Source: an uncultured bacterium
Lineage (GTDB): Bacteria; Armatimonadota; SYMT01
DNA length: 64,000 bases
NCBI GenBank assembly: GCA_964609085.1
Contig: CAZSRZ010000012.1
Location: forward strand, 2,292-66,291
Direction: 5' to 3'
The first letter of the stretch is position 1. Each line of letters begins with the position of its first letter. Shown in pieces: positions 24,609 to 64,000 of this stretch. The translations under genes were made by a program, and so were the position numbers. The notes below the pieces were generated by a model. The model was not told where the DNA came from, made no database searches, and saw only the letters and a list, made by a program, of their open reading frames with translations.

Positions 24609-24750
24609 CCAGGCAGAGGCGAATCTCCACCTGGCCAGATGGTGTCATCACCGGTCGAATCTCTGCAACCCGACCCGGCCGACGCTGTCCCAAATCACGG
24701 TTCCGAGTCTGTGTTCCTGTGCTGAGCTGTAGGCACATGGCAGGTGGTCC

Positions 24751-31161: not shown

Positions 31162-31183
31162 CCCGGTAAACTGGAGTGACAGC

Positions 31184-32551
31184 GTGAAGTATTCAGCCGG
31201 GCAAGCCCACACTGCCTCTTCGCCGCGATGGAGCCGCCGTGATCTTCTCACGGCCGGCAGCCTCGGGGCGCTCGGTTGCAGCCTGCCCGGGATTCTGGCG
31301 GCCGAAGCGGCGGGGCTGCGAGCCGGCGCAACGGCAAAATCAGTGATTTTGCTCTTTCAGTGGGGGGGACCGAGTCACCTCGAGACATTCGACATGAAGC
31401 CCACGGGGGATGAGAATGCTCGGGGCCAGTTCCGGCCGATTGGGTCCTCGCTGCCCGGGGTTCAGGTGTGCGAACACCTGCCGCGCTTCGCGCAGGTGAT
31501 GGATCGGGTCACGCTGGTTCGCTCGGTCTCGCACCAGTTCAAGAATCATAACCCGCCCGGCTACTACGCCTTGAGCGGCCACGCTCCCCCATTGGATGAC
31601 CAGCGCTTGCGCGACACGCCGGAACTCTTCCCTCACGTGGGCTCGGTGCTCTCGAAACTGTATCCGTCGCCGTCAGATGTTCCGAGTTTCGTCGCCATGC
31701 CGGCCCGGATCCGAGACGGAAGCGTCGTGCCCGGCCAACACGCCAGCTTCCTGGGAAAGCAGCACGACCCCCTGTTGATCCTCAACGATCCGAACGGCAA
31801 GGATTTCCGATTGCCTGAGCTGAGCCTGCCGGCCGCGTTGACTCCCGAAAGGCTGGACGATCGTCGCACCCTGCTGCGAGCCCTGGACCGGCGGCAGCGG
31901 CTGGCCGAGAAACTGCCTGCCGCCCAGGGAGTCGAGGCCTACCAGGAGCGGGCCTTCGCGATGCTCTCATCCCCGAAGGTCAAGCAGGCATTCGACTTGA
32001 GCCGGGAGGCTGCAGCGACGCGGGATGCCTACGGACGCACCACCTTCGGGCAATCCACGTTGCTGGCTCGGCGGCTCGTGGAGGCCGGCGTACGGCTGGT
32101 AACCGCCTACTACTGCAATCCGGGCGGGGGGTTCATCTGGGACACCCATGAGAACAATTTTCCGGAATTGAAATCCAAATTGCTCCCCACAACGGACCAA
32201 ACCGTGCCCACACTGCTTCGAGATCTCGAAGATCGAGGACTTCTGCAGGAGACCCTCGTCATCTGGATGGGCGAATTCGGTCGCACTCCGAAGATCAACG
32301 ACAAGGCCGGACGTGATCACTGGCCGGACTGCTACAGCCTGATCATGGCCGGGGGCGGAATGAAGCGCGGGTTCGTCTATGGTGCCTCTGACCCCGCGGG
32401 AGCTTACCCGATCGAGAACCCGGTCCGCCCCGAGAACATTGCCGGGACACTTTACCGCGCCCTTGGCCTCGACCCGCACACCGAGGTGCGTGACCTCACC
32501 AACCGCCCGTTCCCGATTGGGGGCGATGCCGTTGCCGACCTCTTCGCATGA
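31184..32551 (+). CDS. DUF1501 protein
   Basis: Motifs 'VILLFQWGGPSHLETFDMKP', 'GRDHWPDCYSLIMAGGGM' and a Tat-like 'SRRDLLTAGSLGALG' are present. Confidence 0.8.
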   Translation: MKYSAGQAHTASSPRWSRRDLLTAGSLGALGCSLPGILAAEAAGLRAGATAKSVILLFQWGGPSHLETFDMKPTGDENARGQFRPIGSSLPGVQVCEHLPRFAQVMDRVTLVRSVSHQFKNHNPPGYYALSGHAPPLDDQRLRDTPELFPHVGSVLSKLYPSPSDVPSFVAMPARIRDGSVVPGQHASFLGKQHDPLLILNDPNGKDFRLPELSLPAALTPERLDDRRTLLRALDRRQRLAEKLPAAQGVEAYQERAFAMLSSPKVKQAFDLSREAAATRDAYGRTTFGQSTLLARRLVEAGVRLVTAYYCNPGGGFIWDTHENNFPELKSKLLPTTDQTVPTLLRDLEDRGLLQETLVIWMGEFGRTPKINDKAGRDHWPDCYSLIMAGGGMKRGFVYGASDPAGAYPIENPVRPENIAGTLYRALGLDPHTEVRDLTNRPFPIGGDAVADLFA

Positions 32552-41110: not shown

Positions 41111-41460
41111 TGGAGGCGCCGGGAGTTGAACCCGGGTCCGAAGGGACGCGAACGAGACTACTACGAGCGTATCCGCTGATTTAATCTTGCGCCTGGCCCC
41201 CCAGCGACAGGGTTCCGATCGGCGCCAGCCCGCTTGTTAGGCAGGGCGGTCCACAGGCACTACCGCCCGGCCTGGCCAGGATCGTTAACGCCCTACCCCG
41301 CGCCCCTGGCCGGGCACGGTTCGGACGGGCCGCTTAGTTAAGCAGCCAGCGCGTAACTGTTATGGTTCGCGTTTGTGTTTTTGCCGCTTTTTACGAGGCC
41401 AACGGCGCCTCGGCTCGCAATCTCGCCCGGCACTCTCCTCCGTCGACACCCATCGCCCCC
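41111..41460 (-). ncRNA. ssrA: tmRNA (transfer-messenger RNA, SsrA)
   Basis: The minus-strand 5' end 'GGGGGCGAUGGGUGUCGACGG' pairs with the 3' end '...GGGUUCAACUCCCGGCGCCUCCA' (T-arm GGUUCAACUCC, G3:U70 acceptor). An internal tag ORF reads '...GCG AAC CAU AAC AGU UAC GCG CUG GCU GCU UAA' = (A)NHNSYALAA-stop. Length is about 350 nt. Confidence 0.85.
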
Positions 41461-46800: not shown

Positions 46801-47080
46801 CCTCTACGGAACCATCCATACCGATTGGCGAGTTGATGGGGATACCCTTCGCCTCGAGGTGGGGTTGCCTACAGGCACGACGGGCGTGGTCTATCTCCCC
46901 AAGCGGGGTGCCGGCCGAGTAACCGTCTCGGAAGGTGGGCGGACTCTGTGGCGTGGCGGGGCTCTCGTCGGTGGAGTCCGCGGGGTCCGCACGGCTCGGG
47001 ATCTCGGTACCATGGTCATGCTCCAGGTCGACAGTGGGCGCTACGACTTCCGTGTCGCGCCCGAAATGAGATTGCCGTAG
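43820..47080 (+). CDS. GH78 alpha-L-rhamnosidase, secreted
   Basis: It has a signal peptide and 'DCPQRDERLGWMGDAQVF' in the catalytic (alpha/alpha)6 domain, with N- and C-terminal beta-sandwich domains. The protein is 1086 aa. Confidence 0.85.
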   Translation: MKLFRLISLLAAAGALQLAAVAPAADAAVRAARLRCEYLVNPLGLDERVPRFYWELRSGVRGEAQTAYQVIVSSTRDLAGKGKGDLWDSGKVSGSQSQHVEYAGKPLASRTAGFWRVRVWDGRGTASAFSETAVFEVGLATADWTASWIGLPSPEPPGPLYDLAGASWCWFPEGNPVQSAPAGRRFFRRRFDLPVGTRPERAVVLVSVDNDATVFLNGGAAGTAGGWQTAAVIDVRDRLREGQNVLAIAAGNASEGPAGLIARFVAYYADGTSVVVTLNEDWKCRAQEEPGWEKSEFDDGAWVAVKRIAQLGAAPWGQVKVGQPTASRPAAYLRKEFAGAPGLRRARLYATALGVFEIQLNGERVGDDVLAPGWTDYRKRAQYVTYDVTERIRAGKNVVGAVVADGWYAGSLGFDLSKNHFGPSPPRLRLQLELEFADGRRLQVVSDQSWLAATGPIREADLYGGEVHDARLELSGWTDPAVVPPGKTWQAVTVYTDRVVEMNGLTCPPIRVTGDRPTVAVTEPTPGTFVFDVGVNMVGVARLRAKAPAGTRIRLRFAEILNPDGTIYRDNLRMARAEDVYITRGEGTEIWEPRFTYHGFRYVEVTGYPGRPDEDLITGRVFHSDLDRAGSLETGVDLVDRLHANIYRGQQGNLMSVPTDCPQRDERLGWMGDAQVFAWSACWNMDMAPFWTKWMRDIADSQSEAGAFSDVSPRVVDLADGAPAWADAGIVIPWTQWLYYGDRRLIQRYYPAMRKYVDLLVSANPDLLWLKRRNNDFGDWVAAGENTNKDLIASAYLAWDLRVISESAAVLGQTADAARYGELAKRSAAAYNQRFLDADGRYRGDTQTAYAMSLGMGLVPADRRAQVSARLLESVRRRGNHLATGFIGTRFLLPALSDSGEDVLAYRLLLNRTFPSWGYMIDKGATTIWELWNSDTQGPAMNSRNHFAFGTVAEWMQRYLLGVDLAEGSSGYRRISIRPRVAPGIPGAKGDVGTLYGTIHTDWRVDGDTLRLEVGLPTGTTGVVYLPKRGAGRVTVSEGGRTLWRGGALVGGVRGVRTARDLGTMVMLQVDSGRYDFRVAPEMRLP

Positions 47081-47175
47081 CCCAGATCGGCGCAGGTCGA
47101 ACGCGGAACTTCAGAGAAACCTTAGAAGTCCGAAACCTGCGACACCGGGGCGCGGTGCACGGGGAGGAGCGGGGA

Positions 47176-48519
47176 ATGATGGATAGCACTCGCATCATGG
47201 GGGCCGGCGGGATGGGTGGCGACGCCACCCAACTGGGCGGGCTGGGCGGCGGATTCGATCCCGGACGGACGGCGATGGCCGGCTCACTTCAGGGGCTCAC
47301 CCTGGACGTGATCACGGGCAACCCCTACGCGCAGGCAGGCCGGGCGGCGGCCGACCACGTGCTTTTCCAGATCAACGCGTCCAGTGGCATGGTCGGCCGA
47401 CGGCTGCCGCTCAACATCGCCCTGGTCATCGATCGCAGTGGGTCAATGGAAGGCGAGCCGCTCGACTACATGAAGCGCGCCTGCGGTCATGTCGTCGACC
47501 TGCTGGATCCGAACGACGTGCTCTCTATCGTCACCTTTGAGGAACGTGTAGAGGTGGTGATGCCCGCACGCCGCGTTGTGAACAAGCAACTCGTGAAGGA
47601 GCACATCAACCGGATCCAGCCGGGGAACACCACCAATCTCTTCGAAGGTCTTGCCCAGGGCGCCTCCCAGGTAGCGTCGGTTCGCTCCGAAGGCTACGTC
47701 AACCGCGTGGTGCTCCTCACCGATGGCGAACCCACCGCCGGTGTCAAAGACTACTCATCCATCGTGGGCTGCGCGGCGGAGCAGCGATCCCGCGGAATCA
47801 GCGTCACAGCCCTGGGCTTCGGCCCGGAGTACAACGAGGAACTGTTGGTCGGCATCGCCCGGCGGGGCGGCGGCAACTACTACTACATCGCGCGTCCCGA
47901 CCTGATTCCGGAGGTGTTCCGGGCAGAGTTGGAGCAGTTGCTCACCATCGTTGCGAAGAACATCCGGCTGCGCCTGGTGATGGGGAAGTGGACCGAACTG
48001 CGGCAGATTTACGGTCACCAGCCGCAACTGGGGAATCGCACTGCCGAGCTGCAGCTCCCCGACCTGGAGCGCGGCGCGTCCGTGCGCGTGCTGATGGAAC
48101 TCGGCCTCGGACGCCGACCGGCGGCATCATTCCGCGTCGCCCGAGCGGAACTTCACTATGACGATTGTCTCTCTGGCGCGGCCGGTCAATGCGTCGAGGG
48201 CGATGTCCTCTTTCAGTTCGTCCCGGATGCGTCCCTGGTCGCTTCCGGGGTCAATGGAACCGTGCAGCGGGAAATCGAAGTCGCCCGCGCCTCCCGCAGC
48301 CTGGAGCGAACGATGATGGGGATCAAGACCCAGCATCTTTCCACCGACCACGCGCTGCTTGACCTGCAGCGGACGCAGATGCTGCTAACCCAGTCCGGCG
48401 CCGCGGCACAGGCCGCAGAGGTGGGGCGGGCCATCCGCGATCTGCGTTCGGGCACGGGCGATGCCGAAAAGACTCTCATAGGCACCGTGATGGATCTCGA
48501 CCTCGGTAAGCGAAACTAA
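47176..48519 (+). CDS. von Willebrand factor type A (vWA) domain protein
   Basis: 'LNIALVIDRSGSMEGEPLDYMK' is the MIDAS motif DxSxS, followed by 'LTDGEPT'. The N-terminus is Gly-rich. The ATG at 47176 follows 'ggagg'. Confidence 0.75.
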   Translation: MMDSTRIMGAGGMGGDATQLGGLGGGFDPGRTAMAGSLQGLTLDVITGNPYAQAGRAAADHVLFQINASSGMVGRRLPLNIALVIDRSGSMEGEPLDYMKRACGHVVDLLDPNDVLSIVTFEERVEVVMPARRVVNKQLVKEHINRIQPGNTTNLFEGLAQGASQVASVRSEGYVNRVVLLTDGEPTAGVKDYSSIVGCAAEQRSRGISVTALGFGPEYNEELLVGIARRGGGNYYYIARPDLIPEVFRAELEQLLTIVAKNIRLRLVMGKWTELRQIYGHQPQLGNRTAELQLPDLERGASVRVLMELGLGRRPAASFRVARAELHYDDCLSGAAGQCVEGDVLFQFVPDASLVASGVNGTVQREIEVARASRSLERTMMGIKTQHLSTDHALLDLQRTQMLLTQSGAAAQAAEVGRAIRDLRSGTGDAEKTLIGTVMDLDLGKRN

Positions 48520-48530
48520 GGGAGGCGGAC

Positions 48531-49490
48531 GTGGAAGAACGTACAGTCGTCGACCCGGGGTTTGGCTACGCCGCCGGCTCCGAGGCCACAGTGGTCGTCG
48601 GGGCGCCGGTCGCTGGGGGCTTCGATGTTACCCAGCAAGCCATCGTCACCACCTGCCCGGTTTGCTCCGCCACGAACCCACCGGGCAACCGGTTCTGCCA
48701 GGACTGCGGCTATGTCGCGGGATCGATCGCCTCGGACGAGGTGCCGGAACTTGGCGAATCCGCGAAGCTGGTGGATGCCTCCGGCCGTGAGCATTCGATC
48801 GACCAGGGGGCTAACAGCGTCGGCCGCGAGAGCGCGGATGTGCTTTTGCCCGACCCCACCGTGTCCCGACGACATGCCGTGCTGACGGTGGACGGGACGC
48901 AAGTGCTGATTGAGGACCTGGGCAGCACCAACGGCACCCAGATCTCGGGTCGCCGTCTCGTTCCGAATGAGAAGTCGGCAGCCTTCCACGGCGACCGGGT
49001 CTCCTTCGGGAAGGTGGAGTTAACCCTGCACCTCCCAGGCGCCCCCGCCAGGCCAGCATCTCTGCCGGCGCCGGGTCAGACCGCCGGACCGGCAGCGCAG
49101 GAGCCCGCCGTGGATCGGGGTCCGGTCCTGGCGGAGGTCACACTCCCGGACGGCTCGGTTCACTCGCTCTACGCCGGAGTGAACACCGTGGGGCGGCGCT
49201 CCACCAACCAGATCGTACTCCCAGACGCGTTCGCCTCGGGAGCGCATGCCGAGTTCCATGTCAGTGCGGACGGCACCGTCGAGATCGTGGACATCGGCAG
49301 CACGAATGGTTCCTTCTACGCGGGAGAGCGGCTCGCGCACGGGACGAGGATCACCCTCACCCCCGGCGACTCCGTCACACTCGGGAAGACGCTGGTAGCG
49401 CTCAACGCATCGCTGGAATCGAGGGCGGAACCGGAAACGATGGTGGTTGTGGAGGCTGGGTCGGCCGAAGACGAGGCCGCCCGGCCGTGA
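48531..49490 (+). CDS. zinc-ribbon + two FHA domains protein
   Basis: The zinc ribbon is 'CPVCSATNPPGNRFCQDCG'. FHA motifs are seen twice ('GANSVGRESADVLLPDPTVSRRHAVL...STNGTQI' and 'GVNTVGRRSTNQIVLPDAFASGAHAEF...STNGSF'). Confidence 0.75.
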   Translation: MEERTVVDPGFGYAAGSEATVVVGAPVAGGFDVTQQAIVTTCPVCSATNPPGNRFCQDCGYVAGSIASDEVPELGESAKLVDASGREHSIDQGANSVGRESADVLLPDPTVSRRHAVLTVDGTQVLIEDLGSTNGTQISGRRLVPNEKSAAFHGDRVSFGKVELTLHLPGAPARPASLPAPGQTAGPAAQEPAVDRGPVLAEVTLPDGSVHSLYAGVNTVGRRSTNQIVLPDAFASGAHAEFHVSADGTVEIVDIGSTNGSFYAGERLAHGTRITLTPGDSVTLGKTLVALNASLESRAEPETMVVVEAGSAEDEAARP

Positions 49491-50488
49491 TGCGGGACGA
49501 GCAGGAAGTGACAGCGCCGCTCGACACCGCGGAATTGGAGTCGGGCTGGGCCACCAAGCAGCCCTCGCAGCCGCGGAAGCACACCTATCTGCTCTGCGCC
49601 GCGAAGACCGACCTGGGCCAGGTTCGGGAAAACAACGAGGACAAGTTCGACAGCTTCGAGCCGGATGATCCGGCGACACTGGCGACCAAGGGGCGGGTGT
49701 ACGCCGTCGCCGACGGGATGGGTGGCTACTCCGCGGGGCAGATCGCTTCCGAAATGGCGCTGAACGTCTTCATCCGCGCCTACCTGGCGCATCGCAGCCC
49801 GGACATCGAACGGGCGCTGAAGGACGCGGTGCGGGAGGCGAACGAGTTCGTCGTGGGCGTCGCGAAGACTGTCCCCGGGCGCAACGGAATGGGCACCACA
49901 CTGACGGCCGCCGTGATTCGCGACGACGACATGTTCGTCACGCAGGTAGGGGACAGCCGGTGCTACCTGCTTCGGGACGGGGTGCTCGATCAGTTGACTG
50001 AGGACCATTCCTGGGTGGCAGAGCAGGTCCGCTCCGGAGCCATGTCGCTTGCCGAAGCCGAGCAGTCACCCTTCCGGAACGTGATCACGCGCTCCATTGG
50101 CGGGCAGCCGCAGGTTGTGGCGGATGTCTATGCCCTGACGCTGCAGCCGGGCGATCGAATCCTTCTCTGCTCGGACGGGTTGAGTGGCTTCATCCCACCG
50201 ACAGAGCTGTTTGAGATTCTCTCCGACGGCTCCGCTTCGGTCGCCGCCTGGAACATGATCGAACGCGCCAATCATCATGGGGGGCGGGACAACATCACCG
50301 CCTACGTGCTCGACATCGTCGATATTGTGGATTGGCATACGACGGATCCAGACCCGGAATCTGCCCGCGAGCCCGGACACACCAATGGGAATTCCCGAAC
50401 CGTCGAGCCCCTGCCTGCCGCTGAAGCCACGCCTGCATCGGAGGGTGGACGCGGGGGACTGATGGGGCGCCTCTTCGGCCGAGGCTGA
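49487..50488 (+). CDS. PP2C-family Ser/Thr protein phosphatase
   Basis: Motifs 'YAVADGMGGYSAGQIAS', 'GTTLTAAV' and 'LLCSDGLS' are present. Confidence 0.8.
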   Translation: MMRDEQEVTAPLDTAELESGWATKQPSQPRKHTYLLCAAKTDLGQVRENNEDKFDSFEPDDPATLATKGRVYAVADGMGGYSAGQIASEMALNVFIRAYLAHRSPDIERALKDAVREANEFVVGVAKTVPGRNGMGTTLTAAVIRDDDMFVTQVGDSRCYLLRDGVLDQLTEDHSWVAEQVRSGAMSLAEAEQSPFRNVITRSIGGQPQVVADVYALTLQPGDRILLCSDGLSGFIPPTELFEILSDGSASVAAWNMIERANHHGGRDNITAYVLDIVDIVDWHTTDPDPESAREPGHTNGNSRTVEPLPAAEATPASEGGRGGLMGRLFGRG

Positions 50489-50591
50489 AGCCGGCTGTCC
50501 CCGGGTGCCGGGCTCCGGTAGAATCAGTCGAACAGGCGCCGCCCGTGGGTCGTCTCGTTGACAGGACACCGCTGCAAACCCGGAACCTCGC

Positions 50592-52496
50592 GTGCAGACT
50601 TCGAACACACTTGGTCGCTACCAGATCCTCCGCGAGCTGGCCCGCAGCAACGACATCGTCTACGAGGCCCGGGATCCATCAGGGCTTCGCGTCGCCCTCA
50701 AGGAACTGCAGGTGCCGGCCAATCTCGTGGGTCGCGCCCGCACCGAGAGGATCGCTCGGTTCACGCGGGAGGCACGGGCGGCCGCCAGCCTGAAGCATCC
50801 GAACATCGTCCATATCCATGACCATGGCGACGTGCAGGGTCGCTACTTCATTGCGATGGAGTTCCTGCAGGGTCAGTCACTGCGTGACGTGCTGCGACAG
50901 CGGGGCGCACTCCCGGCGAGCGACGCCATCAACATCGCCGCGAAGGTGGCGGAAGGGCTGGCTTATGCCCACAAGCACGGCGTCGTGCACCGGGACGTCA
51001 AGCCGGACAACGTGCACATGGAACCGGATGGGCGCGTCGTCATCACCGACTTCGGCATCGCCCGGCTCACCTTCGAACCCACCCTGACGGCGGAAGGCCA
51101 GGTGTTCGGCACTCCCAGCTATATGTCGCCCGAACAGGTGACGGGCAAGGGGATTGATCACCGCAGCGATGTCTTTTCTCTGGGCGTGATGCTTTACGAG
51201 ATGGTGGCAGGCCGGAAGCCGTTTAGCGGCGACAGCGTCATCACCATCACCTACAACATCATGAACATGGAGCCGTCTCCTCTCGCGAATGGACCGACCG
51301 GCCTGGACGCCGTCATCCGTCGCGCCATGGCCAAAGACCCGAATCGGCGGTACGCAAACTGCGCCGAGTTGATTGAGGACCTCCAGTCGATCCAGCAGGG
51401 GCGGCGCCCTGCGCATGCGGACAGGATGCCTCCAGCTCGAGTGGGCGGCGCCGCCCCCGCCCGCCCATCAGGAACGCAGGCCCGGCATCCCGCGCCCCCG
51501 GCACCCCGGCCGCAGCCTCGCCCGGCCCCGCGGGCAGCAGGGCCGCTGCCGCATCCTGCCCCGGGATATCCCGCGCCGGTTCGCCAGGGCGCTTCGCCGG
51601 GGGCGCCCGTGCGCGGTGCCCGCCCAGCCGCGCCACCCACACACCAGATTCCAGCGCCGGTGCCGGTCTACCACTCGTCCCCCCAACGGGGCGGGCTCGA
51701 TCTCCGGTGGTTGCTGGGCTGGCTCGGTCTGGCCGTACTCGTCGGGCTGATGATCATCGGGATTGTTTGGGTGAGTGTGACCGCCCTGGATCGCTTCCGT
51801 GTGGAGACCAGTGTGCGCGACGCCGAGAGAGCGCATACGATCGCGGCGGCGGACTTCCAGGCAGGGCGGTATGAGGAGGCGCTGCGGGGGTATCTCGCGG
51901 CGGAAAAAGGCCTCTCCGGCCCCCGCCTCCTGGTGGTGCAAAAGAATGCGGCCAACGCCGCCGTGGCGCTGGCTGATCGGGCGCTGGAACAGAAGGATGC
52001 GGCCCGCGCGGAGTCGTTCGCTCGCCAGGCCGTGCAGCAGAACCCGGACGAACCGGCCGCCCGGTTGTCGCTGGGCAGAGCGCTGGCGCTGCTGGGGCGC
52101 GTGGATGAGGCCCTGCAGGAGTTTGGACAGGTCGAGGGGGCGGCGGAGCGCGCCCGACGAACGGACACGCCGGCCGAGGCGGCCCTCCATCGAAAGACGG
52201 TCGAGGCCCTGCCGCTGTGGCGCGCGGCAACGACCTACGCGGACGGCGTGGCGCTGGCTGAGACGAACCCCCAGCTCGCCCGCCAGCGATTTCAAATGAC
52301 CGTGGATGCCGCGCCAGCCTCCGATTTCGCCAGAAACGCGCGAGATTACATCCTGCGGATCGACTCTGCCGCTCGGGCCGGCACGCCCCTCAGCCCGCCA
52401 TCCGATCCGCCAGGCGGGCAGCCTGGGGGCGTCGGCGGCTCGCCGGAACGGCCCCCTGGCTGGACGGATCCTGGGTTCAGGGCCAGTGATCCCTGA
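50592..52496 (+). CDS. Hanks-type Ser/Thr protein kinase with TM segment and C-terminal TPR region
   Basis: Kinase motifs are 'VALKEL', 'HRDVKPDNVHM', 'DFGIAR' and 'GTPSYMSPEQ'. A Pro-rich linker, a TM helix 'LGWLGLAVLVGLMIIGIVWV' and TPR-like repeats follow. The start codon is GTG. Confidence 0.85.
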   Translation: MQTSNTLGRYQILRELARSNDIVYEARDPSGLRVALKELQVPANLVGRARTERIARFTREARAAASLKHPNIVHIHDHGDVQGRYFIAMEFLQGQSLRDVLRQRGALPASDAINIAAKVAEGLAYAHKHGVVHRDVKPDNVHMEPDGRVVITDFGIARLTFEPTLTAEGQVFGTPSYMSPEQVTGKGIDHRSDVFSLGVMLYEMVAGRKPFSGDSVITITYNIMNMEPSPLANGPTGLDAVIRRAMAKDPNRRYANCAELIEDLQSIQQGRRPAHADRMPPARVGGAAPARPSGTQARHPAPPAPRPQPRPAPRAAGPLPHPAPGYPAPVRQGASPGAPVRGARPAAPPTHQIPAPVPVYHSSPQRGGLDLRWLLGWLGLAVLVGLMIIGIVWVSVTALDRFRVETSVRDAERAHTIAAADFQAGRYEEALRGYLAAEKGLSGPRLLVVQKNAANAAVALADRALEQKDAARAESFARQAVQQNPDEPAARLSLGRALALLGRVDEALQEFGQVEGAAERARRTDTPAEAALHRKTVEALPLWRAATTYADGVALAETNPQLARQRFQMTVDAAPASDFARNARDYILRIDSAARAGTPLSPPSDPPGGQPGGVGGSPERPPGWTDPGFRASDP

Positions 52497-56436: not shown

Positions 56437-57606
56437 ATGCGCTTTCACTCCGCGCTCACCGTCGCGGCCACCGCGGAAGATGCCGGTTTAGAACTCACCT
56501 CGGCGGCGCGCGACGCGTGGGGAGGAGCGGGTCCGATCGACCTCGCGTTCCTCTTTTTCACGGGACACCACGCCGACTCTGCGCCCGAGCTGGCCGGATC
56601 GCTGCGGGCAACCCTGGGAATCAAGCATCTCCTCGGCGTCAGTTGCGAGGGTGTCATCGGCGAGCGGACGGAGATCGAGCGCGTCCCGGCTGTGGCATTG
56701 CTCACCGCGCGGCTGCCCGGGGTGAATCTTCAACCCTTCGCCGTCGAGGGTCGCGAGTGGTCGGAGCTGCTTCTGGACGAAGAGCGACTGCAGCGGCGCC
56801 TCGGAACCGGGCCGGGGCACGCCGGTCAGATCCTGTTGTCGGACCCTTTCAGTACTCCGATCGACGAGATCCTGCCCGGACTCGATGTTGTTCTCGGGCG
56901 CCCCACGGTCGGCGGGATGGCGAGCGGCTCCCATCAACCGGGCGGCAACATACTGATCTGCAACGACCGTGTGCTCAACGCCGGGTCTATCGGGGTGGGC
57001 ATCGGCGGCGCACTCAGCCTCACAACGCTCGTCAGCCAGGGCTGTCGACCGATTGGTCGCCCGATGGTCGTCACGCGATCGGACCGCAACGTCATTCTTG
57101 AGCTGGGGCGACGCCCAGCGCTAGCTGCCGCGCAAGAGATGTTGCGCGCCCTCCCGCCGGAGGAAGCAGAGATGCTCACGTCCGGACTCCTGATCGGAGT
57201 CGTACTCGACGAATACAGGTCCGAATTCACTCGCGGCGACTTCCTGATACGACCGCTGATGGGCGGCGATCGCGAGGCCGGCTCCATCGTGATGGGCGAC
57301 CTCATCCGGTCCGGCCAGACCATTCAGTTTCATGTGCGGGACGCAAGCACGGCGACCGAAGACCTGCGCGAACTGCTGACGCCGCACCTCGCGGAGCCGC
57401 CGCCCGCGGGTGCCCTCATTTTCAGTTGCAACGGCAGGGGGAGCCGGCTTTTCGAGGAAGCTGGCCACGATCTGGGCGCGCTGCAATCAGCTTTCCCGGG
57501 CCTTCCGACAGCAGGGTTTTTCGCGATGGGGGAATTGGGGCCGATCGCCGGTCGAACGCATCTGCACGGGCACACCGCCAGCATGCTGCTCATCCACCCG
57601 GCCTGA
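56437..57606 (+). CDS. FIST-domain sensory protein (FIST_N + FIST_C)
   Basis: FIST-like blocks are 'DLAFLFFTGHHADSAPELAGSL...LLGVSCEGVIGE' and, C-terminally, 'GALIFSCNGRGSRLFEE...PTAGFFAMGELGP'. The ATG at 56437 has a 'gggag' RBS 6 nt upstream. The gene starts 14 bp after kbl. Confidence 0.7.
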   Translation: MRFHSALTVAATAEDAGLELTSAARDAWGGAGPIDLAFLFFTGHHADSAPELAGSLRATLGIKHLLGVSCEGVIGERTEIERVPAVALLTARLPGVNLQPFAVEGREWSELLLDEERLQRRLGTGPGHAGQILLSDPFSTPIDEILPGLDVVLGRPTVGGMASGSHQPGGNILICNDRVLNAGSIGVGIGGALSLTTLVSQGCRPIGRPMVVTRSDRNVILELGRRPALAAAQEMLRALPPEEAEMLTSGLLIGVVLDEYRSEFTRGDFLIRPLMGGDREAGSIVMGDLIRSGQTIQFHVRDASTATEDLRELLTPHLAEPPPAGALIFSCNGRGSRLFEEAGHDLGALQSAFPGLPTAGFFAMGELGPIAGRTHLHGHTASMLLIHPA

Positions 57607-57619: not shown

Positions 57620-57645
57620 GATAGGATGTGTCGCAGCAGACCCCC

Positions 57646-58046
57646 CACGCTCCCTCACGGCTGCGGCTCAGCGGGGGTGCTCCCGACCTGGGTGCGCGGG
57701 CGTCCCGGCCCGCCTGGCCTCCACGATCCATGGACCCGTCGGGGCACGTCGGCGGTGAATCGCGAGTGGCCGAGGACTCCAGGCACCAGACGGAGGCCGA
57801 GTCCGCTGGCGGCAATGGCACCACGCTCCCTGACGGCCGCGGCTCAGCGGGGGTGCTCCCGACCTGGGTGCGCGGGCGTCCCGGCCCGCCTAGCATCCAC
57901 GATCCATGGACCCGTCGGGGCACGTCGTCGGTGAATCGCGGGTGGCCGAGGACACCAGGCCCCGGGCCCCAGGCCCCAGACGGAGGCCGAGTCCGCTGGC
58001 GGCAATGGCACCACGCTCCCTGACGTCCGCGGCTCAGCGGGAGTGG
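57646..58046. repeat. tandem direct repeat, about 2.2 copies of a 176-190 bp GC-rich unit
   Basis: The unit starting 'CACGCTCCCTGACGGCCGCGGCTCAGCGGGGGTGCTCCCGACCTGGGTGCGCGGGCGTCCCGGCCCGCC...' recurs at 57646, 57822 and 58012 with over 90% identity. The second copy carries a 14-bp insertion (CCCGGGCCCCAGGC). The period is not a multiple of 3. Confidence 0.85.
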
Positions 58047-58317
58047 CTGCGGCGTCCGCGCTGTGCCCGCGGACCAGTGTCTGCGTACAGCACCACAGCC
58101 GGCACGCAATCGCAAAAGAGGAGCCAGGTACTTTCTGAATGGCCGAGGAGTTTCTGGGGCGGATGTCGAATCAACTCCTGACGCCGCTCGGTGGCGGCGA
58201 GGGGAGCCACGATGCTCGGCAAACGCAGAGCGAAACCCGGTCCGCGCTCTCTTGACCGGTGGATGGTCGCCACCACCAGCCCCGGCATTTGGTCCGGCGT
58301 TCTCGATTCACGCGGCA

Positions 58318-59871
58318 ATGGCCAACGGTATGACCGTGAGTCACACCTATGACAGCGACAGCCGCGAACTGCTGCTGGAGAACCGGAAGAGCGATGGCAC
58401 GGGGATCGCCGTCTACACGGCGCAGTATGACAACGCTGGCAATCGGCTCAACGTCGTCGAGCTCGACGGCAGCCGGGTGACGTATGGCTACGACGAAGTA
58501 TCCCAGCTCACCAGCGAGGTGCGGTCGGGGACCTGGCCCTACGACATCCAGTATGAGTACGACGGCTGCATGAACCGGAAGCGGATGATCGAGAGCGGCG
58601 CCGTCACCAGCTACAGCCACAACGCGGCCAACGAGCTTCTCGTGGTCCAACCCTTCAACGCCTTCCCGACCAGCATGACCTGGGACGCCGACGGGAACCT
58701 GGAGACCGAAGTCACCGGGGCGAATCGGACCACGCGAAGCTGGGACTCCGAGAACATGATGGTCAGCGTCAGCAGCCCCGACGGCCTGGCCACCCACACC
58801 TACAGCCAGGGTCAGAACGGCTACCGCGTGCGCAAAGCAGACCCGGACGGAACGACGGTCTTCGTCTGGGATCTCGAGAACATGCTTCTCGAGGCAGACC
58901 TGGCCGGCGTGACACAGGCGAAGTACACCGACTTTCCGGGGTATTGGGGTGGCCTGGCCAGCCAGCGGATGAGCAGCGTCTCCGGTTGGTACTGTACGGA
59001 CGCGGACGGAAACGTGCGCTACCTGGTTGATGAACAGGGTCTCGCGGGCGGCCAGATCTGTCTCGCGTCGTTTGGGGTGCGGCTGGACGGCGCCGTCGGG
59101 CGGGAGCTACCCTGCGTCTTCCACGGCCTCACGGGGTACCGCACTGCGGGAGCAACCCTATTCGTTCGCGCGAGATCTCTGCAGCCCTCGGTCGGCCGAT
59201 TCTCGAGCCGTGACCCCTTCGGTACCTCTGATCTCTACGTGTATTGCGGTAATCGGCCTCTCCTGCTGGACGACCCATCTGGGCTAGTATCCAGGAAGGG
59301 GAAGCCGTCGGGTGTCGAGTGGACTGCCTTGCTTCCCATTCTTCCTTCTCCACTTAGGGAACTATGCCTTGGGGCAGCGACGTGTCAGTACCTGCAAGGA
59401 CTGACCGAGTACGGCAACTGGTGTGGAGCGGGGATCTCAGGTCCAGCCACCGGTCGTCCGAGCACCACCTGTGATTGTATCGATACGGGGTGCGCAAACC
59501 ACGACGCCTGTCTCCGGGGAATCGCGCCTGGCACTTCCTTGGCACGGCTAGCGTGCGACACGGCCCTCTGCCGCAAGGCTAAGTCGTGCCTCGGCGGGGG
59601 CTGCGATCGGCAGGTTGCGTCGCCGCCGTGTACACCGGTAACCTGCAGGCAATTTGCCTGGCGCATAATATTGAACTTCTGCCAGGGCGGAGCAGGTTCG
59701 AGCCCCCCGGCCACGTATCCCGTGCCCGCCGTCAACGGCAACCGTAACACGTCGATCGATGACATCCGCAACTGGTGCGTGTGGTATGGATGGCCGGGGA
59801 TATCGCTTTACCATCCTCCTTTTCCCAACCCTCTCGGTCCGCTACCAGGTTCAAGTTATTTCTGGAGGTGA
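58318..59871 (+). CDS. N-terminally truncated RHS/YD-repeat polymorphic toxin with C-terminal secreted-PLA2-like domain
   Basis: YD repeats are present ('YDSDSRELL', 'YTAQYDNAGNRL', 'YGYDEVSQL', 'YEYDGCMNRKR'). The RHS core ends with 'GYRTAGATLFVRARSLQPSVGRFSSRDPFG...LLLDDPSGL'. A 190-aa Cys-rich tail then carries 'YGNWCGAGISG' (PLA2 Ca-loop-like YGxxCGxG) and 'DCIDTGCANHDACL' (PLA2 catalytic CCxxHDxC-like). There is no PAAR or other N-terminal trafficking domain. Confidence 0.7.
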   Translation: MANGMTVSHTYDSDSRELLLENRKSDGTGIAVYTAQYDNAGNRLNVVELDGSRVTYGYDEVSQLTSEVRSGTWPYDIQYEYDGCMNRKRMIESGAVTSYSHNAANELLVVQPFNAFPTSMTWDADGNLETEVTGANRTTRSWDSENMMVSVSSPDGLATHTYSQGQNGYRVRKADPDGTTVFVWDLENMLLEADLAGVTQAKYTDFPGYWGGLASQRMSSVSGWYCTDADGNVRYLVDEQGLAGGQICLASFGVRLDGAVGRELPCVFHGLTGYRTAGATLFVRARSLQPSVGRFSSRDPFGTSDLYVYCGNRPLLLDDPSGLVSRKGKPSGVEWTALLPILPSPLRELCLGAATCQYLQGLTEYGNWCGAGISGPATGRPSTTCDCIDTGCANHDACLRGIAPGTSLARLACDTALCRKAKSCLGGGCDRQVASPPCTPVTCRQFAWRIILNFCQGGAGSSPPATYPVPAVNGNRNTSIDDIRNWCVWYGWPGISLYHPPFPNPLGPLPGSSYFWR

Positions 59872-59873
59872 CG

Positions 59874-60950
59874 ATGGCGAACACGCGAACCCGAAAGGGC
59901 CCGAATTGGCTCGATAAAGTGTTGTTGCCGGCGGTGACGGTTGGCATTCTCGCGTGCTGCATTCTCAGTTCCGGCTGTAGTGCCGTCAGCAACGACACAT
60001 TCCAGGACTCTGCGATCGACGTCTCCGCTGACGGCAACCGGATCTGCTTCGCCGCGGCAGGCGACGGCAGGAGAGACATCTACTGGCTCGACAGGCGGAC
60101 AGGTTTGGTCCAACTGGTCGCCAAAACCGCCCAATGGGAACGGGGACCTCGGTTCGTGCCGGGATCCAATATGCTGGTGTGCAGTGCGGGCGACGCGGGA
60201 GGTGAGTCGGCCCACATTGAGCAGCGCGATCTCGGCGGGACCGCCGGACCAGTAATGCTCACCGCAGACGAGGCGCAGATCGACGAGTGCCCAGCCGTGT
60301 CGCCGAACGGGAGACTGGTGGCCTTCGCGCGCGCGCCAAAGCTCGGACTGGGGCCTAACGGCTATCTACCCGGATCATGGGACGTCTACACTGTCAGCGT
60401 GAAAGGGGGTGCTCCCGTCCAACGCACCACGATTGGCTTTGGGCGGTTGGTCTCCTTGGCCTTCTCTACTGACGGTAGGTATGTCTATTTCAATGCTCAG
60501 CGACTGCGCGTCCCTGGCTTTCGCGTTTTCCGCCTGGACTTGGCTCGACCAGCGCAGCCGGTTGAACTCAAGATGCGGCTCCCCGTGTACGAGCCGATCC
60601 CGGGACCAGGCGCGAACAGCATACTGTACTGCTCAACGGCCAAGGCGAATCCACCTGGGGGGCCAAGTACGGGTACCGTGGAGCTATTCAGGATGGACGG
60701 TCTCGCAAAGAATCGGTGGGGCAATCCCTCGCAGCTCACGCACGGGGATCAACCCATTTGGAGTCCAGTGCTCGCTCGCTCTACGCAGACGGTTTACTTC
60801 GTTCGGCAGTCGCCTAGCAGTACCATGAGGCGCCGGATGGCGGAGATCCGTAGTTACTCGCTCACCAATGGCACCGAGTCAAAGGTGGCTGGCGAGCAAA
60901 TTTTTAGCGATCCCCTTGGCGGGTCGACTGCGCCCGGGCAGGTCCGTTGA
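59874..60950 (+). CDS. PD40/TolB-like beta-propeller lipoprotein (candidate immunity protein)
   Basis: The ATG lies 2 nt after the RHS stop, with a 'ggagg' RBS. The signal peptide and lipobox is 'VGILACCILSSGC'. Repeated 'SADGNRICF', 'SPNGRLVAF' and 'STDGRYVYF' blades match the PD40 pattern. Confidence 0.65.
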   Translation: MANTRTRKGPNWLDKVLLPAVTVGILACCILSSGCSAVSNDTFQDSAIDVSADGNRICFAAAGDGRRDIYWLDRRTGLVQLVAKTAQWERGPRFVPGSNMLVCSAGDAGGESAHIEQRDLGGTAGPVMLTADEAQIDECPAVSPNGRLVAFARAPKLGLGPNGYLPGSWDVYTVSVKGGAPVQRTTIGFGRLVSLAFSTDGRYVYFNAQRLRVPGFRVFRLDLARPAQPVELKMRLPVYEPIPGPGANSILYCSTAKANPPGGPSTGTVELFRMDGLAKNRWGNPSQLTHGDQPIWSPVLARSTQTVYFVRQSPSSTMRRRMAEIRSYSLTNGTESKVAGEQIFSDPLGGSTAPGQVR

Positions 60951-61645
60951 CTTCACGAAGCGTCGCCACCATGGGGAAGATCGATCGACCCGAAACTGTT
61001 CCGGACAGCCGAAAGCGCGATGGGACGGGGAGCGGACTCCACACGGCGAGTTACGATCAAGCGGCGAACCGCCTCAACCTGGTCGAGCTGGACGGCAGCC
61101 GGGTGACGTGTGGCTACGACGAGTCCTATCAGCTCACCAGCGAGGTGAGATCCGGCACCTGGCCGTATGACATTGCCTATCAGTATGACGGCGCCTCAAA
61201 CCGGCTGGTGAAGGTGAAGGACGGTCAGCGAACGACGAGCACCTACAACGCCGCGCAGGAGCTGACGGTCATCCAGCATCCCGACGGGACGCGCACCACT
61301 CTCACCTGGGATCCCAACCGCAACCTGGAGACGGAGACCCTTGGATCGGCGACTACCACCTACCAGTGGGATGCCGAGAACCAGATTCGGCAGATCACCG
61401 AGCCACCGAGTACCGTTAACACCTACCGTTACCGGGCCCATCACTGTCGCGGCATCCAGCAGAACGACACCAGCACCAAGTACCTGATCTGGGACTGGCA
61501 GAACTGCGCACTGGAGCTGACCGACGGCCTGGCAGTGGCCGCCGAGTACTCGGGATACCCGGGCGAGTGGGGCGGGCTGGCCAGCATGCGCCGCGGCGGT
61601 GCGTGTGGCTTGCTTCATCCGGACTACTCTGCAAAGAAACTGTGA
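60947..61645 (+). CDS. RHS/YD-repeat fragment (paralogue of 58.3-59.0 kb region, no RHS core or toxin; probable remnant)
   Basis: 'NRLNLVELDGSRVTCGYDESYQLTSEVRSGTWPYDIAYQYDG' is roughly half identical to the corresponding stretch of the upstream RHS gene. It ends just after the conserved 'YPGEWGGLAS' block, about 50 bp inside the point where GC content drops. It has a TTG start, or an ATG at 60971. Confidence 0.5.
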   Translation: MTSRSVATMGKIDRPETVPDSRKRDGTGSGLHTASYDQAANRLNLVELDGSRVTCGYDESYQLTSEVRSGTWPYDIAYQYDGASNRLVKVKDGQRTTSTYNAAQELTVIQHPDGTRTTLTWDPNRNLETETLGSATTTYQWDAENQIRQITEPPSTVNTYRYRAHHCRGIQQNDTSTKYLIWDWQNCALELTDGLAVAAEYSGYPGEWGGLASMRRGGACGLLHPDYSAKKL

Positions 61646-61944
61646 AACCACTGTTAGCACTTTTGGTGCTGCCAACTATGGGAATGGTGGCACTCAAGAT
61701 GATCGGGCTATTGGTGGGGATTGAAACCGGTATTGTGGGCTTCTTCGCAGTTGGTGTTGTTACGTTGTTATTGGCCCGCCGAACTGCACGGGCTGCTGTT
61801 TCGCAGCTGGAACACATGCGTGGTGGCTGGAACCAACCTGGAGACGAGACATTTGCCCTGAGATGTCTTACATGGGTTTTCTGGCTGGTGGGAACCATGT
61901 ATGTTTTATTTGGGCTGGTTGAGATTGTCGTGGCGCTGAAATGA
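61643..61944 (+). CDS. small 2-3 TM membrane protein (hypothetical)
   Basis: A GTG start overlaps the RHS-fragment stop. The translation includes 'LALLVLPTMGMVALKMIGLLVGIETGIVGFFAVGVVTLLLA' and a second helix 'WVFWLVGTMYVLFGLVEIVVAL'. Confidence 0.4.
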
Positions 61945-62157
61945 CGCTTCAGATTCGGTCGGGTCGGGCCGCAAAGCAATCGGTCGGCCGAGAGCGCACC
62001 ATCAGCCGCCGACACTTCACTCCCCCATCCGCTCCGCTAAACGATTGCTTTGTTGCCACCACGATAGCTCGATTTGGGGCTGGAGGTGTCGATCTCCGTG
62101 CGGATGTGCAGTGAATGTGGACGACAGGCAGTCCACGGGTTGACCCGATCAGCTTGT

Positions 62158-62178
62158 ATTCAGTATTGGCTACTGAAT
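62158..62178. promoter_or_regulatory. perfect 8-bp inverted repeat (candidate operator) upstream of small ORF
   Basis: ATTCAGTA-TTGGC-TACTGAAT lies 60 bp upstream of the 62240 ORF. TTGACC at 62141 is a possible -35 element. Confidence 0.3.
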
Positions 62179-62239
62179 CCGCCTCGGTTCGAGTCTGGCG
62201 GCGCCAGGGCAATGCAGTGGCTAGTTTGGAGCTCTAGAA

Positions 62240-62449
62240 ATGCCTAGATGGATTGACTATCTGGCGCTGATTGGGATCAGTGTCCTCGGATTGGGTGCGG
62301 CCGGATGCGCTTTGGTGTTCGTTCAGTTGGCAGAAAGGGGCAGTATGGCGGAAGCACGCCCCTGGGTGTGGGGTGAAGTCGGTCTGTCTCTGGTCTGCGG
62401 TGGGATTCTGGTCTGGTATTTCAAAAAAACTGTTAGACAGATGCGCTGA
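62240..62449 (+). CDS. small 2-TM membrane protein (hypothetical)
   Basis: The translation is 'MPRWIDYLALIGISVLGLGAAGCALVFVQLAERG...WVWGEVGLSLVCGGILVWYFKK', 69 aa, lying in the low-GC island. Confidence 0.4.
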   Translation: MPRWIDYLALIGISVLGLGAAGCALVFVQLAERGSMAEARPWVWGEVGLSLVCGGILVWYFKKTVRQMR

Positions 62450-62582
62450 TCTCTAAGAACAGGTGTGAACAACTGAACCACAAACAGGCGTTGAAAACGG
62501 ATCCATCCCTGGGGCATCTCTCAGGCGATCGCATATCTCGAGTTGGACCAGAGGCTATTCTGCCACTGAAGGATTGGATTTA

Positions 62583-63113
62583 ATGAGCGATACGGGCTTA
62601 CTGACGAGAATTGGGCGATTAGGAACGGTAGTCTTTGGTGTGGGGTGGGTTGGCGTAACGGTGGCCGCAGTATTATCTACCCCGGTAATCTTGAGATCTG
62701 GTGCAGCCGGGCTTTTCGATATGGCGGTCCTGATTCTTACTGCGGTTGGCACTGGCCGACTGACGAGAATGGCCAGTCTTCCACACGCAAAAGCAGCTCT
62801 GACAGCCTCCTGGGCTGGACCGCTGATCTTGCTTGTGGAAACTGTGCTGGTCTCTGATATGTCACCAGGATCTACCGGACTGAGAGTTGGCATTATCCAA
62901 GGTTTACTGGAAGCCGCTTTCTTCTGCTGGCTAGTGCGCGCCTACGGGGCGTTAACCTGGGTTGCTCTGGGCCCGATTGGCTCCGACCGCGGATCGAGGG
63001 TTTTCCGGTTTGCTGCGGACATGCCGGGCCGTCTCTGGTGGTTGCTACCGATGTTCTTCCTTCTGAAGGGAGTCCTGGTTTTCTGGCTTGTTAGCCGTAG
63101 TGGAAGCGGTTAG
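62583..63113 (+). CDS. multi-TM membrane protein (hypothetical; candidate orphan immunity protein)
   Basis: The ATG at 62583 follows an 'aagga' RBS. Four or five hydrophobic helices are present ('GTVVFGVGWVGVTVAAVL', 'MAVLILTAVGTG', 'WAGPLILLVETVLV', 'LLPMFFLLKGVLVFWLV'). It lies in the low-GC island. Confidence 0.45.
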   Translation: MSDTGLLTRIGRLGTVVFGVGWVGVTVAAVLSTPVILRSGAAGLFDMAVLILTAVGTGRLTRMASLPHAKAALTASWAGPLILLVETVLVSDMSPGSTGLRVGIIQGLLEAAFFCWLVRAYGALTWVALGPIGSDRGSRVFRFAADMPGRLWWLLPMFFLLKGVLVFWLVSRSGSG

Positions 63114-63189
63114 CGGCCTGTGGTGAGACCGGCTCGGCGTCTTTTCCCCGGGCCGCCCGGTGACCGCTTCGGGGCCGAGCCCGCCGGCC

Positions 63190-64000
63190 TCAAAGCACCG
63201 CGCCAATGAGCCAGGGATTGAACTCCTCGTCGCCGATGCCGTGGAGTTCGCTCTTCGTCTTCTCGCCGCCGGCCACGGAGATGACCTTTTCCAGGATCGC
63301 CCGGCCCACGTCGGGAACCGTTGCCCCCTGCAGGATGATGCCAGCGTCCAGGTCCATATCGTCGTTCATGTGTTCGAACAGGGGCGTGTTGGTGGCCACT
63401 TTGATGCTCGGTGCCGGTTTGCAGCCGAACACGGAGCCGCGACCGGTGGTGAAGACCACCACGTTGCAGCCGCCGGCAACCAGGCCCGTGACCGAGACGG
63501 GATCATGCCCGGGCGTGTCCATGAATACGAAACCGCGCTTCTGAATCGGCTCGGCGTACTCGAGGACGTCGACCAGCGGGCCATTGCCGCCTTTGGCGAG
63601 GGCCCCCAGTGACTTCTCGTAGATGGTGGTGAGTCCCCCGGCTTTGTTGCCGGGGCTCGGGTTGTTGTCGATCTCGCCGCCGAACATGGACGTGTAGCGC
63701 TCCCACCAACGCATGAGCGCAACGAGCTTTTTTCCCACCTCCGGGGTGACCGATCGGCGGGTCAGCAGGTGCTCGGCCCCGTACGTCTCCGTGGTTTCCG
63801 CCAGCACGCTGGTGCCGCCGTGGCGCACGAGTTCGTCCGTCATCCAGCCGACGGCCGGGTTAGCCGTGATGCCGGAGTTGCCGTCGCTGCCGCCGCAGTT
63901 GGTGGCGACGAAGATCTCGGCGATCGGCTGCGGGGTCCGGGCGAAGTTGTTAGCCCAGGGAAGCAAGCCCTGGATTTCGCGGATGCCCCGCTCAACGGCC
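63190..64000 (-). CDS. UxaA/GarD-family sugar-acid dehydratase, C-terminal part (gene continues past window end)
   Basis: Motifs 'VATNCGGSDGNSGITANPAVG', 'FMDTPGHDPVSVTGLVAGGCNVVVFTTGRGS' and 'GCKPAPSIKVATN' match altronate/galactarate dehydratase C-terminal domains. The gene is on the minus strand, and its start lies beyond position 64000. Confidence 0.7.
   Translation of the reverse strand, partial: AVERGIREIQGLLPWANNFARTPQPIAEIFVATNCGGSDGNSGITANPAVGWMTDELVRHGGTSVLAETTETYGAEHLLTRRSVTPEVGKKLVALMRWWERYTSMFGGEIDNNPSPGNKAGGLTTIYEKSLGALAKGGNGPLVDVLEYAEPIQKRGFVFMDTPGHDPVSVTGLVAGGCNVVVFTTGRGSVFGCKPAPSIKVATNTPLFEHMNDDMDLDAGIILQGATVPDVGRAILEKVISVAGGEKTKSELHGIGDEEFNPWLIGAVL

Follow-up and report, generated by a model that had tools for sequence, protein, structure and literature searches.

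The C-terminal displacement model for orphan rhs-CT genes is reportedly that of Jackson and colleagues, from 2009. Orphan rhs-CT/rhsI modules and their maintenance have been described in Enterobacteria (PMC3150448, PMC7043789). Among polymorphic toxins with RHS repeats, including those of planctomycetes, a prokaryotic domain with the phospholipase A2 (PLA2) fold, Tox-PLA2 (1kp4 type), has been catalogued, and no immunity family is listed for it in that catalogue by Zhang et al. from 2012 (PMC3482391). For phospholipase toxins in general, immunity proteins must be periplasmic lipoproteins, and the Tli protein reported with that rule is an ankyrin-repeat lipoprotein, not a PD40 propeller (bioRxiv 10.1101/2023.03.28.534661). 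Here we analyze a locus within a 64-kb stretch of contig CAZSRZ010000012.1 (hereafter the window; all positions are counted from its first nucleotide). The locus contains two genes with Rhs YD repeats (rhs1 and rhs2), a gene encoding a PD40 protein, and three small membrane open reading frames (ORFs; TM1, TM2, and TM3). As an orphan rhs-CT/immunity array of the ordinary sort, it belongs to a type of locus already known and is no new system, and we think it fairly probable that it represents a decayed array of two orphan Rhs cassettes in a planctomycete-type chromosome.

The YD repeats of the rhs1 product match Pfam RHS_repeat (45.3 bits against a cutoff of 22) and TIGR01643, and its core end, VRARSLQPSVGRFSSRDP...PLLLDDPSGL, matches TIGR03696 (Rhs_assc_core) at amino acids (aa) 278-323 with 35.3 bits against a cutoff of 32.5. 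The rhs2 product also matches RHS_repeat (38.8 bits, same cutoff) and TIGR01643; neither a match to Rhs_assc_core (TIGR03696) nor a toxin domain was found in it. We aligned both products to a full-length Rhs protein of 1340 aa from Planctomyces sp. SH-PL62: rhs1 aa 3-429 align to aa 909-1304 of that protein, with the shell part at aa 909-1225, and rhs2 aa 35-186 align to aa 942-1093. Based on this alignment, both fragments are C-proximal on the Rhs shell. A previous sequence-only reading of the same DNA had described both ORFs as fragments, which is borne out here; its placement of the pieces as N-proximal is contradicted by the same alignment. It had also treated rhs1 as a bare fragment, overlooking both the toxin and the 358-aa PD40 gene, although rhs1 holds the core end (TIGR03696) and a PLA2-like tip. 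A complete shell would comprise ~1000+ residues and carry a plug or delivery domain at its N-terminus; rhs1 and rhs2 cover C-proximal parts only. With its truncated 5' end, core end, and C-terminal (CT) toxin, rhs1 has the features of an orphan rhs-CT gene, and rhs2 does not.

Two relatives of rhs1 (P0002 and P0004) continue upstream past the rhs1 start with more YD repeats (...KTLANGMTVSHTYD...). In the nucleotide alignment, homology between rhs1 and P0002 starts exactly at the rhs1 ATG, which occupies the position of a TTG Leu codon in P0002. The GC content at third codon positions (GC3) is 0.88 in the first 100 codons of rhs1 and 0.76 in the whole ORF, whereas in the in-frame stretch upstream of 58318 it is 0.54; on this value we rejected a start further upstream, at GTG 58063. 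Because the relatives extend past the ATG and GC3 falls upstream of it, rhs1 is predicted to be 5'-truncated at ~58306-58318. The 5' limit of rhs2 falls no more than ~5 codons from that of rhs1, and an independent metagenomic protein of 535 aa (P0003), from a 1792-bp contig of JGI sample 3300042731, shares the same boundary (..SVSHTYD..) within a few codons (rhs1, 58318; rhs2, 60956-60975). The coincidence could reflect an actual gene start, a site at which breaks tend to occur, or a limit that the cassettes have in common.

Using a word-indexed homologue search, we identified the nearest non-self relative of rhs1 at 46% identity. The same search overlooked rhs2 (P0032), which is 47% identical and present in the collection, so its negatives are unreliable for repeat-rich queries such as these, and the lack of a close full-length rhs among its results is therefore only weak evidence. 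A scan of genome contigs with rhs1 returned two distant Bacillota loci only.

The tip of rhs1 carries the motifs of secreted PLA2 enzymes. We identified ~10 relatives of this CT by an exhaustive HMMER search against 1.84 billion representative proteins and 3 more by a second search; each is a short ORF in which the same Cys-rich domain follows ~100 residues from the end of an Rhs core. Based on the family profile, the full-length SH-PL62 Rhs bears the same CT family at aa 1237-1333. Across 12 family members, the residues C, G, D, D, C, H, D, and C are invariant, giving the pattern xGxxCG ... D..D..C..HD.C. When the trimmed family profile was compared with the Protein Data Bank (PDB), all 16 matches with E<=0.01 were PLA2, the best being rice PLA2 (2wg7/8/9) at 7e-7; with the full-length CT profile, the best 60 matches were almost exclusively PLA2, with a best E value of 1.1e-4. 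Pfam Phospholip_A2_1 was matched by 5 of 10 family members (best, 1.9e-5).

AlphaFold (AF2) modelled the CT core with a pLDDT of 85.7, and the top five PDB matches to this model in Foldseek were rice PLA2, with probabilities of 0.75-0.98, weak E values of 0.04-0.17, and a TM score of ~0.46. The trimmed, confident core was needed for this comparison, as Foldseek with the model of the whole 194-aa CT (pLDDT 56) returned only noise. The prokaryotic Tox-PLA2 motifs (DxC[ST] and CxxHxxxYxN) are absent from the rhs1 CT: at the corresponding positions we found CANHDACLRGIAP, in which the fourth residue after the His is not Y and the sixth is not N. Profiles, motifs, and the predicted fold together indicate that the rhs1 CT is a putative toxin of the eukaryote- or plant-type secreted-PLA2-like kind, distinct from Tox-PLA2. 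In a scan of metagenome contigs, the first CT alignment proved too divergent, and the trimmed alignment recovered one locus only (L005); a search of plasmids with the CT alone and with the PD40 protein yielded nothing relevant.

The gene immediately downstream of rhs1 encodes a protein predicted to form a TolB-like beta-propeller (Pfam PD40, 41.1 bits against a cutoff of 20.9). Its N-terminus has a hydrophobic segment at aa 12-39 with a lipobox-like sequence (..ILSSGC), which is a membrane or lipoprotein signal. We considered an assignment to TolB of the Tol-Pal system and rejected it, since the match to TIGR02800 reached 44.3 bits against a cutoff of 343 and involved the propeller blades only. 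In a related locus on a metagenome contig (L008), a gene with a PLA2-type CT (P0023), the toxin of which is 38% identical to that of rhs1, has behind it a gene for a PD40 protein with 27% identity to the window protein over 310 aa (E=1e-21). On plasmid pPL62-2 of strain SH-PL62, an annotated PD40 lipoprotein homologous to that of L008 (E=1.9e-19) is encoded directly behind the full-length Rhs that bears this CT. A PD40 gene thus lies 3' of the toxin in three of the six loci of the PLA2-like CT family (window, L008, and pPL62-2). Because of this neighborhood, and because immunity to phospholipases requires a periplasmic lipoprotein, the PD40 protein is probably the cognate immunity protein of the PLA2-like toxin. 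An IS66 transposase gene lies just upstream of the pPL62-2 Rhs and PD40 genes (L009; NZ_CP011275.1, 61954-66856). As Planctomyces sp. SH-PL62 is a cultured strain, its pPL62-2 plasmid offers a tractable system for the toxin-immunity pair.

In a BLASTP alignment, rhs1 aa 14-223 and rhs2 aa 13-221 are 47% identical (E=8e-59), in keeping with the ~50% identity that the sequence-only reading had estimated for the two paralogues. That reading had rhs2 ending right after a GEWGGLAS block. The block lies near the end (61562-61585); the stop codon follows 19 codons later, and TBLASTN with longer relatives traced Rhs homology to ~61625-61630, a few codons short of the stop. Wherever rhs1 and rhs2 align, third-codon identity is 0.35-0.75, which indicates that their divergence is old and that there is no recent conversion tract. 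We accordingly rejected recent gene conversion as a source of the conserved stretch at 58440-58560, which reflects protein conservation. The nucleotide alignment that had been proposed for locating a recombination breakpoint shows no internal one; the only breakpoints between rhs1 and rhs2 are the two ends of each fragment.

GC content drops abruptly at the end of rhs2: over adjacent 60-bp windows, those at 61540 and 61600, it goes from 0.78 to 0.48. Between 61591 and 63113 the mean is 0.55, whereas the remainder of the 64 kb has 0.66; no other 1.5-kb stretch of the 64 kb is as low (z=-6.9 when compared with windows outside the locus), and values of 0.66-0.72 resume at ~63100. The low-GC segment starts within the last rhs2 codons and ends 77 nucleotides (nt) short of the dehydratase stop codon. 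Its ORFs, TM1, TM2, and TM3, are all called in the source annotation, and a hydropathy scan predicted membrane segments in each. The start of TM1 overlaps the rhs2 stop codon (GTGA).

No homologues of TM3 were detected among 5.8 billion proteins, and TM1-3 have no relatives in the related rhs loci, viral contigs, Pfam, NCBIfam, PHROGs, or PADLOC. A match of TM1 to DUF4064 was below threshold (16.7 bits against 32.1) and was disregarded. No integrase, transposase, terminal repeat, target duplication, or tRNA was found at the ends of the segment. By analogy with other arrays, TM1-3 are possible orphan immunity genes or remnants of them: small proteins with multiple membrane segments are encoded 3' of CT genes in L006 (8918-9367) and L007 (11966-12364), and these proteins, together with the GTGA overlap of TM1 and rhs2, weakly favor an origin of the segment as a cassette remnant.

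The coordinates of the features are collected in Table 1. The island spans 5.6 kb and is set between the 3' ends of two convergent housekeeping genes, the FIST and dehydratase genes. Its genes are tightly packed, with a gap of 2 nt between rhs1 and the PD40 gene and stop/start overlaps at both PD40/rhs2 and rhs2/TM1.

Table 1. Features of the rhs locus and of the genes that delimit it, with positions in the 64-kb window
Feature	Coordinates	Strand	Details
FIST-domain gene, complete	56437..57606	+	Pfam FIST E=3.7e-33; FIST_C profile positions 1-131/131; left limit of the inserted locus
Tandem repeat, non-coding	57645..58045		GC 0.75; between FIST gene and rhs1; TRF score 619, 89% matches
Non-coding spacer	58046..58317		Holds the predicted rhs1 5' truncation junction at ~58306-58318
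rhs1	58318..59871	+	517 aa; identical to source-record protein P0001
rhs1 shell part	58318..59286	+	C-terminal ~320 residues of the YD-repeat shell, core end included
rhs1 CT, putative toxin domain	59287..59871	+	195 aa after DPSGL; 15 Cys
Secreted-PLA2-like core (predicted)	59407-59685	+	rhs1 aa 364-456
YGNWCG, Ca-loop motif	59410-59427	+	rhs1 aa 365-370
CANHDAC, catalytic motif	59491-59511	+	rhs1 aa 392-398
CDTALC motif	59548-59571	+	rhs1 CT
PD40 (TolB-like) beta-propeller protein	59874..60950	+	358 aa; starts 2 nt past the rhs1 stop
rhs2	60947..61645	+	Source start ATG 60971, 224 aa, P0032; truncated at both ends
Low-GC segment	61600..63113	+	GC 0.55; joined to rhs2 3' end; holds TM1, TM2, and TM3
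TM1	61642 (GTG) or 61678 (ATG, source's start)..61944	+	~3 predicted membrane segments
TM2	62240..62449	+	1-2 predicted membrane segments
TM3	62583..63113	+	~5 predicted membrane segments
Galactarate/altronate dehydratase gene, 3' part, C-terminus complete	63190..64000	-	GD_AH_C E=6.5e-99, profile positions 2-240/242; right limit of the inserted locus

GC content is 0.55-0.63 throughout the locus, compared with 0.66 for the window, with the exception of the tandem repeat at its left edge. This repeat has a period of 176-190 nt (no multiple of 3), with 2.2 copies of ~89-94% identity (repeat families D2 and D3), and it occurs only once in the window. Rfam had no match to it, and RNA folding (z +1.35 and +0.83) gave no structure signal; the repeat could have been left by a junction event or could serve as a promoter region. 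No PAAR, VgrG, or other T6SS families, integrase, or transposase were found among 30 large ORFs spanning 0.8-54 kb (Pfam, E<=1e-4). Using a profile of rhs1, rhs2, and their nearest relatives, we identified no further YD-repeat ORF in the window, and there is no full-length rhs either in the 57 kb upstream of rhs1 or elsewhere in it. We found no tRNA or direct repeats flanking the locus; the only tRNA-like gene is a transfer-messenger RNA (tmRNA) gene 16 kb away. Scans of the locus with Rfam and for tRNAs, promoters, and terminators gave nothing informative. Nor did PHROGs provide an informative match, as the CT domain matches one unnamed family and the low-GC ORFs match none.

Several features of this region had been anticipated from the letters alone. 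Acquired DNA is indicated by its composition, and the abrupt GC drop was borne out when sliding-window values were computed. The convergent dehydratase gene on the right is as described, no integrase appears among the Pfam families of the ORFs searched, and an array of rhs remnants that lacks a full-length rhs is what the window contains. All three small membrane ORFs exist; for the first, the start codon is GTG 61642 or ATG 61678 in place of the earlier 61643.

Based on its PSCyt1/PSCyt2/PSD1 and DUF1501 pairs, its lipopolysaccharide-core genes, and its tmRNA, the window appears to be ordinary chromosome of a Planctomycetota-type organism. The tmRNA gene lies at 41111-41460 (-) and encodes the tag peptide ANHNSYALAA. 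A solo DUF1501 gene is located at 19622-21007, and two tandem pairs of PSCyt/PSD1 (DUF1549/DUF1553) and DUF1501 genes occupy 24733-32551; such genes are a hallmark of Planctomycetota-type genomes. An ORF at 21057-22316 (-) has AAA_15/AAA_21 domains (AbiEii-like or OLD-type ATPase) and is possibly a defense-related ATPase. Genes encoding a VWA-domain protein, a double-FHA protein, and a Ser/Thr kinase-TPR protein are clustered at 46837-52496 and are probably a signaling module.

Several rhs-CT cassettes are strung together in each of four related loci (L001, L006, L007, and L008), where small membrane proteins follow some of them; polymorphic-toxin loci of Enterobacteria are known to have this pattern (PMC3150448, PMC7043789). 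Within L001 (5223-13001), a 1058-aa Rhs, which likewise opens straight in YD repeats, is followed by the 5'-truncated 764-aa Rhs P0004 and then by a pentapeptide-repeat protein, which may be the immunity protein of P0004. In three unrelated contigs, Rhs is encoded as two genes (L006, 6593-8921; L007, 7550-8846; L008, 3243-4636). There, a shell ORF ends in '...IWDG(T/S)DYL..S*', and an ORF with the core end and toxin ('M..V.YTV..GE..') starts at most one nucleotide away; further CT genes are arrayed behind it, each from the same Met. The L006 shell has an additional in-frame stop at 6509-6511.

In the reading that we prefer, the two orphan cassettes of the array differ in their state. Cassette 1 would be near-intact, with a truncated shell, a self-cleaving core end (PxxxxDPxGL), a PLA2-like tip, and the coupled PD40 lipoprotein gene. 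The toxin would hydrolyze membrane phospholipids from the periplasmic side, where the anchored PD40 protein would bind and block it. As it has no delivery domain and is missing the first two-thirds of the shell, rhs1 would not support its own export; it would survive as a silent store of toxin that only recombination with a full-length rhs could reactivate, while the PD40 gene would be retained because it protects against kin using the same toxin. Cassette 2, which starts at the same shell point, would be dead: an illegitimate junction at ~61625 would have cost it its core end, its toxin, and its original downstream DNA, with 1.5 kb of low-GC DNA joined instead. That DNA, with its three lineage-specific membrane ORFs, would consist of immunity-gene remnants or of unrelated acquired DNA.

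A number of observations weigh against this account. No main rhs is present in the window, whereas classical orphans directly follow one. The ATG of rhs1 sits exactly at the homology boundary with a strong coding signal from there, and rhs1 may be expressed as it stands, because P0003 is called from the same position. The PLA2 assignment has weak structural support (Foldseek E ~0.04, TM about 0.46-0.47), and rhs1 alone scores below the Pfam threshold for Phospholip_A2_2 (13.1 bits; cutoff, 22). The link between PD40 protein and toxin comes from gene neighborhood only, and the other three loci of the CT family (L005, L006, and L007) have small membrane proteins or no called gene downstream. As TM1-3 have no detected homologue, they are perhaps not genes.

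The position of the rhs1 ATG would also be expected if rhs1 were a working 'C-terminal half' of an Rhs (plug, core end, and toxin) that is made from its own start and completes a separately encoded shell. The model for such a split Rhs is TcC, which completes TcB. The rhs1 ORF is intact with a host-like GC3 (0.76), its 5' boundary is common to rhs2 and to the independent relative P0003, and split shell/CT pairs are kept in the three unrelated contigs described above. Those pairs, however, are split ~190 residues further downstream and hence differ from the boundary in the window, the close relatives P0002 and P0004 continue through that boundary with more YD repeats, and the window has no partner shell gene; we therefore regard a working half as unlikely. 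It is quite improbable, in our estimation, that the shared 5' boundary is a genuine gene start in a wider sense, such that planctomycete Rhs proteins are modular two-gene machines in which C-terminal halves from cassette arrays complete a shell in trans, PD40 lipoproteins form a new immunity family for secreted-PLA2-type toxins, and the splits in L006-L008 are another form of the same principle. If the conserved boundary were a real gene start, it would bear on the assembly of Rhs shells from separate polypeptides. For the segment 61600-63113 alone, the cassette-remnant reading competes with a separate, later insertion of unrelated foreign DNA that truncated rhs2 and left TM1-3 unconnected with immunity. 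The GC step is abrupt, and the GC content of 0.55 differs from the 0.61-0.62 of the CT and immunity part of cassette 1; the segment resembles no CT or immunity gene of the related arrays, and its ORFs lack detected homologues. The segment ends, however, bear none of the marks of insertion sought there, no phage or defense family was matched, the GTGA overlap of TM1 with the rhs2 stop is like that of coupled cassette genes, and the arrays of L006 and L007 carry small proteins with multiple membrane segments after CT genes. We consider such an insertion a minority possibility, and the cassette array remains our preferred account of the locus.

Salmonella orphan Rhs-CT/RhsI pairs are transcribed from promoters within the rhs ORF and act as type II toxin-antitoxin systems (PMC7043789), which raises the question of whether the rhs1 CT and PD40 protein form a toxin-antitoxin pair that is expressed internally, as opposed to a silent store of toxin or one that is delivered. 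This is very unlikely: a CT with 15 Cys residues on the disulfide-needing scaffold of secreted PLA2 should be inactive in the cytoplasm, and the export or lipoprotein signal of the PD40 protein would place it and the toxin in different compartments. No promoter-like site was found on the + strand, although scans for the sigma-70 consensus are unreliable for the phylum. Repeats in rhs genes are an assembly hazard, and in a metagenome-assembled genome a collapse or chimeric join could produce false truncations; the window proteins are, moreover, singletons from one 66,992-bp NCBI contig. An artefact of this kind is nevertheless highly improbable here, as rhs1 and rhs2, at ~47% identity and with saturated synonymous sites, are too divergent for collapse, native high-GC genes with complete ends lie on both flanks, and the genes are packed with overlapping stop and start codons and no frame breaks.

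The locus is a further example of orphan Rhs toxin-immunity cassettes, a well-described means of storing and exchanging competition toxins. To this it adds a putative Rhs tip of the eukaryote-type secreted-PLA2 kind, unlike the already catalogued prokaryotic Tox-PLA2, and neighborhood evidence from three independent loci for a PD40 lipoprotein as the partner of that tip, where the 2012 catalogue lists none (PMC3482391). It also extends such arrays to a phylum whose Rhs delivery route is unknown.

Like the enterobacterial orphan rhs-CT/rhsI modules of the Dickeya dadantii 3937 rhsC locus and Salmonella Typhimurium SPI-6, the window has a 5'-truncated rhs, sequence upstream of DPxGL, and a variable CT, with a candidate immunity gene close behind, units in tandem, and non-host composition. 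It differs from them in its planctomycete-type host, in having no full-length rhs within 57 kb upstream and no T6SS context, in the length of its core fragment (~320 aa), and in that both fragments start at the same core position. Its second unit has lost the DPxGL end and the toxin, and whereas the enterobacterial orphans are near-identical, the window orphan is <50% identical to its nearest relatives.

The rhs1 CT shares YGxxCG, CxxHDxC, and a later C-D-x-x-x-C with secreted PLA2 (rice PLA2, 2wg7/2wg8/2wg9; Phospholip_A2_1/_2) and, like rice PLA2, is predicted to have a three-helix, disulfide-rich core; unlike rice PLA2, to which it is ~20% identical, it is bacterial and fused behind an Rhs core end. 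In contrast to Tox-PLA2 (DxC[ST], CxxHxxxYxN), it has CxxHDxCL without YxN and matches the eukaryote-type enzymes. The proposed arrangement of a lipid-hydrolyzing toxin acting from the periplasmic side and an exported, lipid-anchored immunity protein is analogous to that of T6SS Tle/Tli, although Tle are alpha/beta-hydrolase or phospholipase D enzymes delivered by the T6SS, which the window lacks. In SH-PL62, the Rhs protein WP_082859080.1 is full length (1340 aa) and 29% identical to rhs1 over the shell, and the PD40 lipoprotein WP_082859081.1 is shorter than that of the window (273 aa) and related to it only via the L008 homologue; nevertheless, this pair on pPL62-2, from a host taken to be of the same phylum, has the same arrangement as the window, with the same PLA2-like CT at the Rhs tip and a PD40 lipoprotein gene directly downstream.

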